From Escherichia coli (GTDB lineage Bacteria; Pseudomonadota; Gammaproteobacteria; Enterobacterales; Enterobacteriaceae), in NCBI RefSeq assembly GCF_050920415.1, contig NZ_CP169309.1: a stretch of 64,000 bases of DNA. One strand, 5' to 3'. Positions 34,380-40,993 of this stretch are shown here, in pieces (position 1 is the stretch's first letter; every line of letters starts with the position of its first letter). The notes beneath the pieces are model-generated. The model was not told the origin of the DNA. It searched no databases and saw only the letters and a list, made by a program, of their open reading frames with translations. Position numbers and translations under genes: made by a program.

Positions 34380-35057
34380 ATGAAAATTAATAATGTAGCG
34401 TTACCAATATCTCTTGCTGTAATCCTAACTGGTTGCGTGCCACATGCTTCTAACCGAAATATCACTGCTATTGAAGTGGTGAAGCCTGCTATTGGGCAAA
34501 GTGCTACCGCCTACATGGGCGATCCCATTATCACATCTGCTACTGGATTTAAAACGGACGTACTAGAACTTGGTGCGGCTAATGGTGCATTGTCTTCTAT
34601 CGCTGCTGGTACATATTGCAGTGAGGGGAATGGAATTTACCGCAATTATCATAACCCTCAAGCTGTTGCGTTAAAAAATCTCTATGGGCAAATCGGTAAC
34701 TATGTTGATTATGTTAGTTACGATGCTGCAAAAAATGAGATATCACCGCCAAATGGTACTTCTTATACTGCATCAGAAATTTCTATCAAACGTGTTCCTG
34801 ATGGGCTGTGTCGAGTTAGTAACTCATTGGTTAAGACTATCGAATACAATGGAAATGCAGGCGGTGTAATGAAGTTCACCTATCGTGAATTTGCAAACGA
34901 TATGGCTCGTGCAGCATTTACAACAGATTTTTCTGTAGATTCTAAGGGAAGTGACGTTATCGCTTACAAAGGTGCCAAGTTCAAAGTGAACAAGGCTGAT
35001 AACTCGTCTATTTCTTATACAATTATTTCTGGCTTTGACAAGGCTGTCACGTTCTAG
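34380..35057 (+). CDS. Predicted lipoprotein (cargo gene between replication module and cos)
   Basis: Start at MKINNVALPISLAVILTGC... with lipobox LTGC; 225 aa; followed by a terminator. Confidence 0.65.
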   Translation: MKINNVALPISLAVILTGCVPHASNRNITAIEVVKPAIGQSATAYMGDPIITSATGFKTDVLELGAANGALSSIAAGTYCSEGNGIYRNYHNPQAVALKNLYGQIGNYVDYVSYDAAKNEISPPNGTSYTASEISIKRVPDGLCRVSNSLVKTIEYNGNAGGVMKFTYREFANDMARAAFTTDFSVDSKGSDVIAYKGAKFKVNKADNSSISYTIISGFDKAVTF

Positions 35058-35186: not shown

Positions 35187-35230
35187 CGTAGATCATGCAG
35201 GTGCATGAAAACCACTACATAAAGCGGGCA

Positions 35231-35249
35231 GGCGTGGCGGGGATACGAG
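35231..35249. other. Candidate phage cos site
   Basis: GGCGTGGCGGGGATACGAG resembles my recollection of the P2/186 19-nt cohesive end (GGCG[A/T]GGCGGGGAAAGCA-); memory-based, not verified. Confidence 0.3.
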
Positions 35250-35374
35250 CGCGCGCTCATGGTTGAATTAATGAAATTATGGTGTTAAATAGGCTAGCTT
35301 TTTAAGTCGTGAATATTTGTCAACGCCAAGATTATTGGCCGTTTTTCGCCATTTTTAATGTCCGCTATTGGTCA

Positions 35375-36171
<797 letters not shown>

Positions 36172-36174
36172 AAC

Positions 36175-37338
36175 AGCTCCTCATAGGCACTCAACGGCCT
36201 GTGTTCCACCTGACTGACCTGCTGCCAGAGTGGGGCGTGATGCTCCGGCACGGTCTGCCAGCCGTATACAGCCGAACAGAGACGGTGCGATGCTACCTGT
36301 TGCTCATTACTGTAGATCCGCAGTTCATCATCCAGCGAGATCCGTATTGATACCGGCTGGCCACACAGGCTTTCCGGCACGCTGTAACGGTTCCCGCCAA
36401 CCTCGATATAGCCATCCCAGGAGACATGACGGATATCGAAGTAGCTGGTATCGAAGTCCGTACCTGGCAGCGCCTGCAGATGCACCTGTTCCTGCGTGAA
36501 GCGCTGTTCCGGTGTCTGCCTGAACTGGCGAAGTCCCGCCTGTCGGCAACGTCAGCCATCCACTGCTCCAGTAGCTGATTAACATGGGCGAAGCTGTCGA
36601 ACCGGCGGTACCGGACGAAGAAGTTTTCCTTGAGGTATTTCACCATCCGTTCCACCTTACCTTTGGTTCTGGCCCTTCGTGGACGGCAGGCCCGTGGCAG
36701 GAAGCCATAGTGATGGCCAGCAGCAGGAACCCGGAGTTGAACACCACCTTCCCGTTGTTATTTTTCAGCACTGCGGCTTTCTGGTTATCGACCAGCACGG
36801 TTTTCACGCTGCCGCCGAAGTAGCGAAAGGCGCGGACCAGTGACTCATAGGTATGTTCAGCATCCTGCTTTGGTGCCGCGAAGACATGGAAGCGACGTGA
36901 GAACCCCAGCGTATTAACCGCGAAGTTAACCCTGCATCGTTGCCCGGCAACCTCAGCCTCAACTTCTCCCCAGTCATGCTGTAGCTGGTAACCGGGCTGA
37001 GTTTCGAAGCGAACCGTTTTCTTCGATGGCCGCATCTTACGTTTGGGCTGGATGTAGTAACGCAACATGGAACGGCCACCGGTATAACCCATCGCTTTGA
37101 TTTCCGCCAGGATGACCTCGCCGTTCCAGACATTCTCAGCCAGACGCATGTCGATATAGTCCATGAACGGCTTGAGTTTGGCCATTTTGTGGCGTGTTTT
37201 TCTGGCCGGAGGTTCCGGGTATTTCAGGTACCGTCTGACAGTCCGCTCAGAGCAACCAACCTGAGTGGCAATATCAACAATATACGCACCTTGCTGGCGC
37301 ATTTGCTTTATCATGTAAAAGTCCTCTCTGCTCAGCAT
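36175..37338 (-). pseudogene. istA: IS21-family transposase IstA, frameshifted
   Basis: N-terminal 232-aa fragment (36640..37338, HTH region MIKQMRQQGAYIVDIATQVGCSERTVRRYL) followed by C-terminal pieces in other frames (36168..36655). Confidence 0.7.
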
Positions 37339-37485
37339 GAGTGTTCCCTTTGTGGTGTAGGAACCTTAAGGAAACAACATGTTGGGTGGAGCGGACAATC
37401 CAAATGGTGAATTACTGTCTTATATCATTGGCGCTGACATATTCAATTTTTCAACTCATTTTTTTCATAGGGAGGAGTAATTGAC

Positions 37486-38184
37486 ATGGTTATGTTAGTG
37501 GATGACTGTCCACGATGTGGATCACAAAAAATAGCGTTTGATGTTAATGGGCTGAATTGCACTAGGGTTTACAATGCATTGGGCGGGGGTAAAACATACG
37601 AGTACGAGGTCTATTGTGTTTGCCGAGAGTGTCATAAAACGACAATGTTTCTTTGCAGACCTTTAACGAAAAATAAAACTTTAGATGGCTATAATTGGGA
37701 AAGTGGAATATTCGGCTTAAAGGAAGTTGCAGAGGTTGTTAGGCCTATATCACCGGCAGACTTAGCAGTAGAGGAGCCACCAGAGTTCTTACCTGAGCAT
37801 ATCAATAGTGCATATGAGGAAGGGGCGAAATGTTTGGCTATAGGTTGTTATAATGCAGCAGCAACCATGTTTAGGCTTTGCCTTGATTATGCCACAAAAG
37901 GACTTCTTCCTGATGGGGAGCAAGGGCCTGCGCAAAAAATAAGGAGAAGCCTAGGGTTAAGAATGGAGTGGTTATTTGATAATCATCTACTGCCTGAAGC
38001 TTTAAGGGAACTAGCTGAATGCGTTAAAGATGACGGAAATGATGGAGCGCATGAAGGTATTTTGGATAAAGCTGCTGCTGAGGATCTTGAAGATTTTACC
38101 TATCTTTTTTTAGAACGGCTTTACACTGAACCTCAACGCCTTATCGAAGCCAAGACAAGGCGTGAACAAAGAAGAAACAAATAA
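37486..38184 (+). CDS. Hypothetical protein with N-terminal zinc-ribbon (CPRCG...CRECH) and C-terminal DUF4145-like helical domain
   Basis: 232-aa ORF with GGGAGGAG RBS; Cys4 cluster in first 50 aa; C-terminal region resembles DUF4145 (domain assignment from memory, unverified). Confidence 0.6.
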   Translation: MVMLVDDCPRCGSQKIAFDVNGLNCTRVYNALGGGKTYEYEVYCVCRECHKTTMFLCRPLTKNKTLDGYNWESGIFGLKEVAEVVRPISPADLAVEEPPEFLPEHINSAYEEGAKCLAIGCYNAAATMFRLCLDYATKGLLPDGEQGPAQKIRRSLGLRMEWLFDNHLLPEALRELAECVKDDGNDGAHEGILDKAAAEDLEDFTYLFLERLYTEPQRLIEAKTRREQRRNK

Positions 38185-38192
38185 GTTCGGAA

Positions 38193-39230
38193 TTATTCTT
38201 CTGAAAGAATATAGGGCGTAAATTTAATCACTTCTTCGCCCAGCCAGTCGTTCAGCTCTTGTAGCCTTTTTTGCAAGGGAGTTAATTCATTACGTACAAA
38301 TACGCGACTGGCCTTCTCCACATCCCCAAACCCTCCAACATTATTAGGCATAATCCCCATCATTTGCGGCGGCACGCGGTGCGCAGCCATCATGTCGTCG
38401 CGGCTGACATTTTTGATATTCAAAAACTCATCCTTCGCCGCGACTTCTGACAATGGGATGATCTGAAGCCCGTCTTTTTTGCCGTTAGGCGAGTACATAA
38501 ACAGGTTGCGGAAGTTGCCTGGACCTTTGGCGCTTTTCATCGCATTGCGGAGGTTGTTCACATCCTCCTGGTTTTGCGCGGCATCGGTCATGTACATGAT
38601 AAAGCCCGCATGACTGCCGTTAATGTAATACTTGCGACGGAACAGCGTGGCGGACTCGTTGAGCAGGGCTGACGGAATGGCAGAAAGATAACCGGGCAGG
38701 CCGTAGATCTCCTGATTAATATCCGGTTCCATCAGATGAAAAATGCTGCCTTTCGTGAACTGATACGGCTGGGTTGTCATACCGTATTGCACAAACCAGT
38801 AGGTATCCAGGTCTAACCCGCGTCGGGTGTATTTTGCCAGTGCAGGCTCAAGGGCGATAACTTCACCGAAGCGGTTCGTGCGTTTCTCCAGGTAGGCGTT
38901 ACCAAAAACCAGATAGTCCTGCACAAAACGCGAAAAAGCCTGCTGGCTGAGCAGCGGGTGAGGGATGTAGGTGCTGGTCAGAATGTTGCACTTTACTGCA
39001 ATCGGGGAACTATGATGCACGGCAGCGCGGAAGGTGCGCGCCAGTCCGTCAAAGCTGACGGGCGGCTCATACCAGCGGTCCATCTGTACGCATTCCACAT
39101 AATCCAGCAGTTCTCGGCGGTCCAGAACAGGAACGGGATCGCCGAAGCTGAATGCTTCGGCTGTAGTTTGACTTTTAAGCTGGATCTGTTTCGTCGCCGC
39201 AGCGCGGTTCTTCTTACTCTTTCCCATCAA
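38193..39230 (-). CDS. Q: Portal protein (P2 gpQ-like)
   Basis: 345-aa ORF; size and position (leftward, upstream of terminase P, divergent from scaffold O) match P2 Q. Confidence 0.85.
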   Translation of the reverse strand: MMGKSKKNRAAATKQIQLKSQTTAEAFSFGDPVPVLDRRELLDYVECVQMDRWYEPPVSFDGLARTFRAAVHHSSPIAVKCNILTSTYIPHPLLSQQAFSRFVQDYLVFGNAYLEKRTNRFGEVIALEPALAKYTRRGLDLDTYWFVQYGMTTQPYQFTKGSIFHLMEPDINQEIYGLPGYLSAIPSALLNESATLFRRKYYINGSHAGFIMYMTDAAQNQEDVNNLRNAMKSAKGPGNFRNLFMYSPNGKKDGLQIIPLSEVAAKDEFLNIKNVSRDDMMAAHRVPPQMMGIMPNNVGGFGDVEKASRVFVRNELTPLQKRLQELNDWLGEEVIKFTPYILSEE

Positions 39231-40993
39231 AAAATCTCCACAATATTGCTGGTATTGGCGGATTCGCCCTGCAGCGGTTCGTTAAACAGTGCGTGCATCG
39301 TTGCCCAGGCCAGATCGGCGTGGCTGGCTTCTTCGCTGCGGCTGGCTTCATAGGTCGGGCGGTTGCCACTGGCGGTGGTGGCGCGACGGATTGCCATAAA
39401 GGACTGCGCTATGTCGGTGTGTCCGGCGTCAAACTCCAGACGGCGGTGGCTGATAATGTCGTAGGCCTTGAGTACCAGGGCGTTTTTAACGTTGGGGTTG
39501 TAGACAAACTCCCGGACGGCAGGAAAAAACGCTTTCACGTTCTCGTAAACCCCGTGACCAACGCCGGTTGAGTCGATACCGATATAGGTCACGTTGTACT
39601 GTTCGGTCAGTTTTTTGATGGCGTCAGCCTGGGCGCGGAAGTCCATTCCGCGCCACTGGTGACGCTCAAGAATGCGGAACTTACCGCCCGGCACGGCTGG
39701 CGGCGCCACCACCACGCATCCGGCGCTGTCGCCGTTCTGCGTACCTTTCGCCGGGTCATATCCGATCCACACTTCGCGCCAGCCAAACGGGCGCAGGGCC
39801 AGTGCATGAAAGTCGGTCCAGACTTCCCAACTGTCCACCATGCACGCCTGCAGCTCGCTGAGCGGGAACACGGACGCGAGATCGTCCACGAACTCGCACA
39901 TCAGCAGGTTCTGGTATTCGTCCGGGCTGTACTCCATGCGCAACTGGTCAAGGTCGAACAGGTTACAGCCGCCGCGCACCGCATCTTCCACGGTGACTAT
40001 CTGGCGGTACTGCCCGTCTGCGCACAGCAGGCCGGGGGCCAGATTGCTGTGGGACAGGTCGATGTCCACCTTATCGGCTTTGTTGCGCCCTCGGTTGAAC
40101 AGCGCACCGGACCAGAACGGATAAGCACTGTGTGTCAGGCTGGATGGCGTGGAAAAATAGGTTTGTCGCCATTTTTTGTGAATAGCCATACCGGAAGCCA
40201 CTTTGCGCAGCTCCTGGAATTTCGGTATCCAGAAATATTCATCCAGATACAGGTTGCCGTGGTAACTCTGGGCCGTGCGGGCATTGGTGCCGAGGAAGTA
40301 AAGCGTGGCCCCGTTAGGAAGCACCATCGGATCGCCTTTCAGCTCCACCTCGACTTCTTTGGCGAAGTCGATGATGTACTGCTTAAAGACGTGGGCCTGT
40401 GCCTTACTGGCGGAAAGGAAAATCTGGTTACGTCCGGTCAGCAGGGCGTCAATCAGGGCTTCACGGGCAAAGTAAAAGGTCGCGCCGATCTGGCGAGACT
40501 TCAGCAGGTTGCGGATGCGATTGGTTTTTCCGGCTTCCCACCAGTGGCGCTGGTAGTTGAACATGGAGGAATGGAAGATTTCTTCCAGCTTCTCAATCTG
40601 TTCATCGGTGAAAACATTCTTTTCCGGCTGACGGCGCGGCCCTTTGTTGCGGTTGGCGACGTTAGGGTTTAAGTCGGCTTCGTTGCCGCCATTGTTAAAC
40701 TTGCCGATCCGCGCGTGGCGCTCCGACTGGCGCGCCAGCAGGTCAATTTCTTTGAAATCTTTCCCTTCTTTGTGCTCCTTCATAATGAGCTGGCAGTAGC
40801 GGGCGGCGGTGGTGAGCTGCATCTGATCCAGCGGCCCATAGTCACCCCACTTGTCGCGTTTTTTCCAGCTGTGAACGGTTGCAACTTTCTCGCCCAGCAT
40901 TTCAGCAATGCGGGCTACGCGGTATCCCTGAAAGTACAGCAGCATGGCCTGCCGACGGGGATCGAGATCTGCGGGTGTCAGTGTGGTGTTCAT
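39227..40993 (-). CDS. P: Terminase large (ATPase) subunit (P2 gpP-like)
   Basis: 588-aa ORF overlapping Q by 4 nt; terminase-like architecture. Confidence 0.85.
   Translation of the reverse strand: MNTTLTPADLDPRRQAMLLYFQGYRVARIAEMLGEKVATVHSWKKRDKWGDYGPLDQMQLTTAARYCQLIMKEHKEGKDFKEIDLLARQSERHARIGKFNNGGNEADLNPNVANRNKGPRRQPEKNVFTDEQIEKLEEIFHSSMFNYQRHWWEAGKTNRIRNLLKSRQIGATFYFAREALIDALLTGRNQIFLSASKAQAHVFKQYIIDFAKEVEVELKGDPMVLPNGATLYFLGTNARTAQSYHGNLYLDEYFWIPKFQELRKVASGMAIHKKWRQTYFSTPSSLTHSAYPFWSGALFNRGRNKADKVDIDLSHSNLAPGLLCADGQYRQIVTVEDAVRGGCNLFDLDQLRMEYSPDEYQNLLMCEFVDDLASVFPLSELQACMVDSWEVWTDFHALALRPFGWREVWIGYDPAKGTQNGDSAGCVVVAPPAVPGGKFRILERHQWRGMDFRAQADAIKKLTEQYNVTYIGIDSTGVGHGVYENVKAFFPAVREFVYNPNVKNALVLKAYDIISHRRLEFDAGHTDIAQSFMAIRRATTASGNRPTYEASRSEEASHADLAWATMHALFNEPLQGESANTSNIVEIF

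Follow-up and report, generated by a model that had tools for sequence, protein, structure and literature searches.

The 'Zn finger-HEPN' protein PD-T7-4 was found by functional selection in 2022 (PMC9519451), and has since been renamed RAZR, for ring-activated zinc-finger RNase, with the mechanism described by Zhang et al. (Nature 2026, PMC13017515). In the protein of E. coli UMB1727 (RRL46918.1; PDB 9Y9C and 9Y6U; PMC13017515, PMC9519451) a Cys4 zinc ribbon forms the N-terminal domain and the C-terminal DUF4145 domain is a HEPN RNase with R146 and H154 as essential residues; the linker between them is conserved, packs on the HEPN domain and is needed for function (PMC13017515). Over-produced alone RAZR is non-toxic, and its triggers are ring-forming phage proteins that are bound directly, namely the portals of phages T7, T3 and SECphi18, and Gp77 of SECphi27 (PMC13017515). 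RAZR builds a 24-mer around the phage ring and then cleaves single-stranded RNA non-specifically; the zinc-finger domain is the most variable part of the protein and sets the specificity, and activation on a ring scaffold has been shown for two close RAZR homologues only (PMC13017515).

DUF4145-type HEPN domains are also the presumed effectors of the single-protein systems DS-38 (WP_001313577, PMC13092281), BxaP (PMC10799925) and Ishtar (bioRxiv 10.64898/2026.07.06.735840). DS-38 has 366 residues, and according to its authors the HEPN part alone aligns with PD-T7-4 and the zinc finger works differently (PMC13092281). BxaP carries the DUF4145 domain at the N-terminus, with a weak HEAT-like match in the C-terminal part, and Ishtar has an N-terminal HEPN domain (DUF4145 or DUF3644) followed by an uncharacterised C-terminal alpha/beta domain.

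P2-like phages have a defence hotspot next to cos, between gpA and gpQ, that holds old and tin (PMC9122126, PMC9519451), and a DUF4238 protein and DprA-PRTase are among the systems of this locus that were validated in PMC9122126. The protein described below, WP_000245245, is catalogued among the arrangements of this hotspot in Table S5 of PMC9122126, but is absent from the systems that were cloned in that study, and in the accessible part of its supplement no DUF4145 entry occurs outside Table S5.

The gene and its position in the prophage

The window, i.e. the whole stretch of DNA analysed here, comprises 64,000 nucleotides of Escherichia coli contig NZ_CP169309.1. It contains an ORF of 232 residues, beginning with ATG. 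E. coli LF82 has a P2-like prophage, Escherichia phage Cartapus, whose CARTA_1 protein matches the product of the ORF at 100% identity and is encoded by the first gene after cos. The order in the window is cos, 232-aa gene, portal gene (Table 1), which is the hotspot position. A first-pass annotation, made from the sequence alone, had described the gene as preceded by a strong ribosomal binding site, as convergent to the portal gene with 8 bp between the gene and the portal stop, and as located in a cos-proximal hotspot known for old and tin. All three statements were confirmed, the first two on the sequence (the 8 nt between the stops are 38185–38192) and the third by the papers cited above. 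The portal gene is followed by that of the terminase ATPase (39227..40993). Homologues of the 232-aa protein number 603 in 90% clusters, and a full HMMER scan of 1.84 billion representatives gave 223 clusters at 50% identity with E ≤ 1e-30, indicating that the ORF is more than a chance reading frame.

Table 1. Features of the region between cos and the portal gene, in window coordinates.
Feature	Position	Strand	Remarks
cos site	35199..35257	.	Cartapus positions 1–59 as annotated in OV696611
Promoter-like block TTGAAT ... TGGTGTTAAAT	35263..35291	+	just right of cos; consensus TTGAAT ... TGGT[AG]T[CT]AAA
ISEc62-family IS21-like element	35318..37439	-	full length, both inverted repeats TGTCAACGCC and GGCGCTGACA; istA and istB frameshifted
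TATT target-site duplication, right copy	37440..37443	.	4 bp; left copy 35314–35317
Shine-Dalgarno GGGAGGAG	37470..37477	+	8–10 nt upstream of the ATG of the 232-aa gene; read directly from the sequence
Zinc-ribbon and DUF4145/HEPN gene	37486..38184	+	232 aa; 100% identical to CARTA_1 / WP_000245245, phage Cartapus (E. coli LF82)
N-terminal Cys4 zinc ribbon	37486..37665	+	aa 1–60; C8, C11, C46, C49; predicted sensor; with the linker the fastest-evolving part
Linker	37666..37770	+	aa 61–95; extra beta strand 82–88; least conserved segment; about 25 residues longer than the RAZR linker
DUF4145 / HEPN-fold domain	37771..38100	+	aa 96–205
Catalytic-type motif K181-DDG-N185-DGA-H189	38026..38052	+	aligns with R146, N150, H154 of RAZR
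Long C-terminal helix end and basic tail	38101..38181	+	aa 206–232; E210, R211, E215 align with RAZR D179, D180, R184
P2-type portal gene (gpQ homologue)	38193..39230	-	345 codons; convergent with the 232-aa gene

Like the other cargo of the hotspot the gene is short, lies in the gpA-gpQ locus next to cos and can be exchanged for other genes in P2-like prophages that are alike elsewhere; in strain 23CRST047 the slot between cos and portal is occupied by a DUF262 gene, in a prophage whose left side is 98.7% identical. The cargo proteins are, however, unrelated to the window protein, and the gene differs from them in lying on the portal side of cos and in being unusually persistent across divergent P2-like phages. 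In IMG/VR relatives are found in 78 viral loci, and a P2-type portal gene is convergent and immediately downstream in 49 of these, the linked portals being 62–100% identical; where the relative has at least 49% identity, the portal adjoins in all but two of the loci. Distant relatives are found in Gordonia phage Meyran, as the first gene and ahead of those for terminase and portal, beside an integrase gene in a Pseudomonas element with a large Toprim-domain (primase-like) gene and an Ogr/Delta gene, alone in a Nitrospira genome, and before HNH endonuclease genes, where the identity of the neighbour was read from its translation.

Three IMG/VR contigs (L079, L081 and L085) contain relatives of about 39% identity directly 3' of a 153-aa ORF, with a small secreted or lipoprotein-like ORF after the relative. 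From its translation the 153-aa ORF probably encodes a Mor-family activator, and the arrangement suggests a recurrent cargo position in Mu-like phages. A P2-like prophage of Pantoea agglomerans (L010 1..220) has the cos-portal homologue and also a second DUF4145 protein, of 244 aa, encoded beside the CI repressor gene. In Burkholderia phage phiBt-TXDOH a zinc-ribbon/DUF4145 homologue with 32% identity (L004 3001..3603, + strand) is unannotated in the record, which has a 301-aa 'hypothetical protein' on the other strand of this DNA, probably a mis-annotation.

The prophage carries other accessory genes. Between the ypjA autotransporter gene and the prophage integrase gene (26816..27829, - strand) is a CDS (25283..26803, - strand) for a 506-aa GapS1 family antiphage protein (NCBIfam NF047931, 428 bits with a cut-off of 320), and a second defence cargo is thus present at the integrase end. 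The last gene left of cos (34380..35057, + strand) encodes a 225-aa lipoprotein-like product with a signal peptide ending in LTGC, which matches phrog_1353 (unknown function) with E 3e-105 and has no PADLOC match. At this position LF82 has a different gene of 203 aa, LF82_789, classed as a moron by the LF82 study, indicating that the left side of cos also holds variable cargo. The ypjA/EhaD autotransporter gene (20330..24945, + strand) appears split in the window into a 1299-aa ORF and then a 236-aa ORF; in other strains it is annotated as one CDS of about 4.6 kb, and a frameshift or a pseudogene is possible.

Domains and conserved residues

The first-pass annotation had recognized an N-terminal Cys4 cluster and a DUF4145-like C-terminal domain, and both are upheld by the profile searches and the structure prediction that it had proposed. 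Pfam places DUF4145 (PF13643) at residues 114–203 with E 7e-7, and the alpha-helical core of the HEPN superfamily (Pfam clan CL0291, DUF4145 family) was found in the C-terminal domain. C8, C11, C46 and C49 are invariant among 25 homologues with 48–88% identity and in three distant phage homologues. The AF2 model of the protein has an N-terminal beta ribbon, and the N-terminal domain gives weak profile matches to the zinc ribbons of RPB9/RPA12, which parallels a comparison drawn in the RAZR paper. In PHROGs the protein matches phrog_1305 with E 9.5e-53, residues 1–231 covering profile positions 12–224 of 226. NCBIfam has no model for the protein, and a non-significant Pfam match to Lar_restr_allev (E 1.7) was dropped.

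In the alignment of the 25 homologues the C-terminal half is strongly conserved and the motif from K181 to H189 is invariant. The typical motif of the superfamily is R-x(4-6)-H, and the window protein has instead the x7-spaced variant of DUF4145 and RAZR, with K in place of R. Two HEPN-like motifs had been put forward in the first annotation, and only one of them stands: KDDGNDGAH aligns with R146-x7-H154 of RAZR, but in the stretch RMEWLFDNH R159 is invariant and H167 variable.

The lysine at position 181 is shared by 118 of the 119 close relatives (about 49% identity or more), the remaining one having Q, while the RAZR family has R at the catalytic position in 120 of 120 proteins. Among the listed HMMER matches that do not belong to the 119 close relatives the residue is R in 73 and K in 46, and the motif is otherwise unchanged, [RK]-x-D-G-N-D-[GA]-x-H. 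In the window family H189 and N185 are invariant, and position 181 is R or K with few exceptions. The alternation of R and K indicates selection for charge at this position, and K181 probably is a conservative change that leaves the site active. An oddity that defines the clade, or a lost activity, was considered for the K-for-R exchange and was rejected on the alternation seen in the wider search.

The N-terminal part is much more variable. The mean majority-residue fraction is 0.53 for residues 1–60 and 0.37 for residues 61–95, against 0.76 for the HEPN core, and homologues that are 60–94% identical over residues 96–232 are 24–79% identical over residues 1–95; a second comparison gave 25–79% for the N-terminal part against 66–94% for the HEPN part. 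A variable N-terminal domain on a conserved enzyme domain is the pattern published for RAZR. The overall identities of gene and portal correlate (Spearman 0.88), but strict co-divergence of the two is contradicted by P2-like phages with portals of 87–89% identity in which the N-terminal part is 36–43% and the HEPN part 70–82% identical, which makes an exchange of alleles, or very fast evolution, just as probable as vertical descent.

Relation to RAZR

With the PADLOC model for PD-T7-4, also among the searches proposed at first pass, the window protein scores a weak 26.1 bits (E 1.2e-6, profile positions 39–165 of 211) compared to 322 bits over positions 4–209 for a true RAZR-family protein, which places it outside PD-T7-4 as modelled. 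Neither the single sequence nor the family profile found anything relevant among the PDB sequences. RAZR was reached only when the profile had been extended by three distant homologues, from Shigella phage POCJ13, Burkholderia phage phiBt-TXDOH and Gordonia phage Meyran, and the match was then chain OA of 9Y9C, a 219-aa 'DUF4145 domain-containing protein', with E 6e-5. This chain is RAZR-Ec, as the alignment reproduces the published residues Q140, R146, H154, D179, D180 and R184. K181, N185 and H189 fall on R146, N150 and H154, and both CxxC pairs are aligned. The RAZR family was then collected with the RAZR fragment and aligned, and hhalign of the two families gave a probability of 88.7% with E 2.6e-6 over 156 columns with 22% identity, where residues 6–207 of the window family are matched to 15–173 of the RAZR family. 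A RAZR-family protein also matches phrog_1305 over the full length (E 5.4e-27), and the AF2 models of the window protein and of the RAZR family show the same order of strands and helices, both with a low-confidence catalytic loop.

Judged from profiles and predicted folds, the window protein and RAZR are distant homologues over their full length, with common ancestry and the same two-domain plan; the window protein belongs to a separate sister subfamily and not to PD-T7-4 as currently modelled. Both are single proteins of about 210–230 residues made up of zinc ribbon, linker and C-terminal DUF4145/HEPN domain, in both a basic residue and a His are spaced by x7 around a central Asn and the variation is greatest in the zinc-ribbon domain, and both are carried on mobile elements and fall in PHROG 1305. 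The differences are considerable; the identity of about 22% is visible by profiles only, RAZR has an arginine (R146) where the window protein has K181, and the longer linker with its extra strand is poorly conserved, in contrast to the conserved linker of RAZR (mean majority-residue fraction 0.37 versus 0.70). The C-terminal end is one long basic helix in the window protein and a helix-loop-helix in RAZR. At the three inter-dimer contacts that serve RAZR for higher-order oligomers the window protein also has charged residues, with the sign reversed at two of the three, and in its family R211 and E215 are invariant and E210 nearly so. The RAZR gene overlaps an integrase gene, whereas the window gene is in the P2 cos-portal slot.

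The layout with a zinc ribbon first, in about 230 residues, is absent from DS-38, BxaP and Ishtar. An identity with DS-38 of the DefensePredictor study was considered and rejected, as DS-38 is WP_001313577 with about 366 residues; WP_000245245 was not found in the accessible part of the tables of that study. The literature search found no experiment on the subfamily of the window protein. The first-pass annotation had called the candidate undescribed, which does not hold, since single proteins with a zinc finger and DUF4145/HEPN are known as PD-T7-4 since 2022 (PMC9519451) and as RAZR since 2026 (PMC13017515), and the exact protein is both listed in Table S5 (PMC9122126) and annotated as CARTA_1 of Cartapus. 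What is new here is a divergent RAZR-like subfamily beyond the reach of the PD-T7-4 model, not a new kind of system.

The IS21-family insertion

The ATG of the gene is preceded, at a distance of 46 nt, by the end of an IS21-family element, in agreement with the 47 bp given in the first-pass annotation. The limits of the insertion were set by inspecting the ends of the element after comparison with the intact Cartapus, to which window positions 35199–35317 correspond as Cartapus 1–119, and the match to Cartapus resumes just right of the insertion. The element had been called decayed, which is true of istA and istB but not of the ends, as both inverted repeats are kept. Compared to an intact ISEc62 copy there are 10 substitutions and three 1-bp deletions (near 35829, 36533 and 36714) that lead to the frameshifts in istB and istA. 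None of the deletions is in a long homopolymer, and the adjoining phage genes are intact, so the deletions look like real decay and not an assembly error. The junction was absent from all 5,426 complete E. coli genomes searched, and from 10 of 10 identical IMG/VR loci. Through the insertion a phage genome of 33.4 kb is 2.1 kb longer between cos and the portal side, a gain that may influence packaging of the P2-like prophage.

Transcription

In LF82 the gene (CARTA_1/LF82_788) has log2(fpkm+5) values of 4.65 and 4.71 in stationary LB (S1 Table, PMC9928086), 7.0–7.6 in the B1/B6 samples (bacteria without macrophages, where DMEM is inferred as the medium) and 9.2–9.6 in the macrophage samples MB1/MB6, and the adjoining portal gene stays at 2.5–3.0 over all conditions (PMC9928086). 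Set against the silent portal, these readings indicate that CARTA_1 is transcribed from the LF82 prophage without lytic induction, as expected of a cargo that serves the lysogen.

A scan for the σ70 consensus found no promoter upstream of the gene, neither in the window nor in the intact Cartapus. Beyond the conserved cos core, the block at 35263–35291 is common to the P2-like phages with this gene, the leader downstream of it being variable, and the prophage with the DUF262 gene diverges from the block onward; from this conservation it is likely that the block is the promoter of the cargo gene. The IS separates it from the gene in the window, which fits the suggestion made at first pass that the promoter may have been replaced or disrupted. 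The remaining 46 nt and the end of the IS hold no σ70 consensus, and a hybrid promoter with CTGACA at the IS end was rejected when inspection by hand gave weak -10 candidates only. With the IS in between, the gene would be reached only by 2.1 kb of read-through or from an unrecognised promoter at the IS end, and the window copy may be silent.

Proposed function

On balance we favour an anti-phage role, in which the prophage carries the gene for an immune RNase of the RAZR (PD-T7-4) type that works as a single protein, and the single-gene defence candidate of the first-pass annotation is reasonable. In favour are the DUF4145 domain, the homology to RAZR, the variable N-terminal part on a conserved HEPN part, the basic residue kept at position 181, the hotspot position with a DUF262 gene in the slot of a near-identical prophage, the GapS1 gene elsewhere in the window prophage, and the transcription of the LF82 copy. 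The N-terminal Cys4 zinc ribbon would be a hypervariable sensor that binds a protein of an incoming phage, by analogy to RAZR a large ring assembly such as the portal. Binding would re-arrange pre-formed oligomers in such a way that the C-terminal DUF4145/HEPN domains form composite active sites with K181, N185 and H189, and the active enzyme would cleave RNA non-specifically, leading to a stop in translation and an aborted infection. The gene is a cargo of the cos-proximal defence hotspot that is normally transcribed in the lysogen. Several points weigh against this reading, namely the 22% identity to RAZR and the 26 versus 322 bits on the PD-T7-4 model, the catalytic Arg that is Lys, the longer and poorly conserved linker and the different C-terminal end, a ring activation that is known for two close RAZR homologues only, the zinc finger of DS-38, which its authors judge to be used differently, and, for the window copy, the IS between the gene and the conserved upstream block and the lack of a σ70 consensus in the 46 nt that remain.

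The gene could instead be a prophage moron for a HEPN toxin that serves host physiology or prophage retention, as an RNase of the stress response or as an addiction module, without sensing incoming phages. HEPN domains do occur in toxin-antitoxin systems (PMC3710099), and in LF82 transcription rises about 30-fold from LB to macrophages with the structural genes silent (PMC9928086), but we regard this as unlikely, since the gene stands alone between cos and portal with no antitoxin-like neighbour, LF82 and the window have different genes left of cos, RAZR does no harm to the cell when over-produced alone, and an N-terminal part that is hypervariable next to a conserved enzyme domain marks a sensor in an arms race. 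The description of phrog_1305 as 'DNA binding protein', the zinc ribbon itself and the repeated location at the borders of packaging modules (beside the P2 portal, before an HNH gene, first gene of Meyran) would agree with a DNA-binding or regulatory phage protein that acts, for example, at cos or in packaging. No experiment behind the phrog_1305 label was found, however, and the experimentally characterised member of PHROG 1305 is an RNase; together with the conserved residues, which are those of a HEPN nuclease site, and the dispensability of the gene, whose slot related prophages fill with unrelated genes, this makes such a role quite improbable.

The change of the catalytic Arg to K in this clade and the tight linkage to the portal in 49 of 78 viral loci could also be taken as signs of a HEPN protein with altered catalysis, one that binds portal-like rings but cleaves no RNA and is either a decoy to counter host immunity of the RAZR type or an assembly factor. 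H189 and N185 are nevertheless invariant, the R/K alternation indicates selection for an active site, and transcripts of the gene are present in the lysogen, where the portal is not produced, so we consider this very improbable. A different meaning of the same linkage follows from the portals of 62–100% identity that adjoin in the 49 loci and from RAZR-type proteins being triggered by portals. The zinc ribbon might recognise the portal rings of competing phages, other P2-like phages included, and spare the resident portal, so that gene and portal would be a co-inherited pair for self/non-self exclusion; the linkage would then be functional and not a matter of position, which we hold to be decidedly unlikely.

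Significance

If the RAZR-type RNase is active, the subfamily would extend the principle of RAZR, immune activation by assembly on a phage ring, to a second and very divergent branch, one that is phage-borne and widespread, and that is missed by the current defence finders. It would also provide natural experiments on how a prophage that builds its own portal avoids triggering a portal-sensing RNase, on whether Lys can replace the Arg of HEPN, and on what sets the specificity in a longer and different sensor domain. The practical weight for this strain is smaller, as its copy behind the IS may be silent. The most interesting question is how a protein of a portal-sensing type co-exists with, and is linked to, the portal gene of the phage that carries it.
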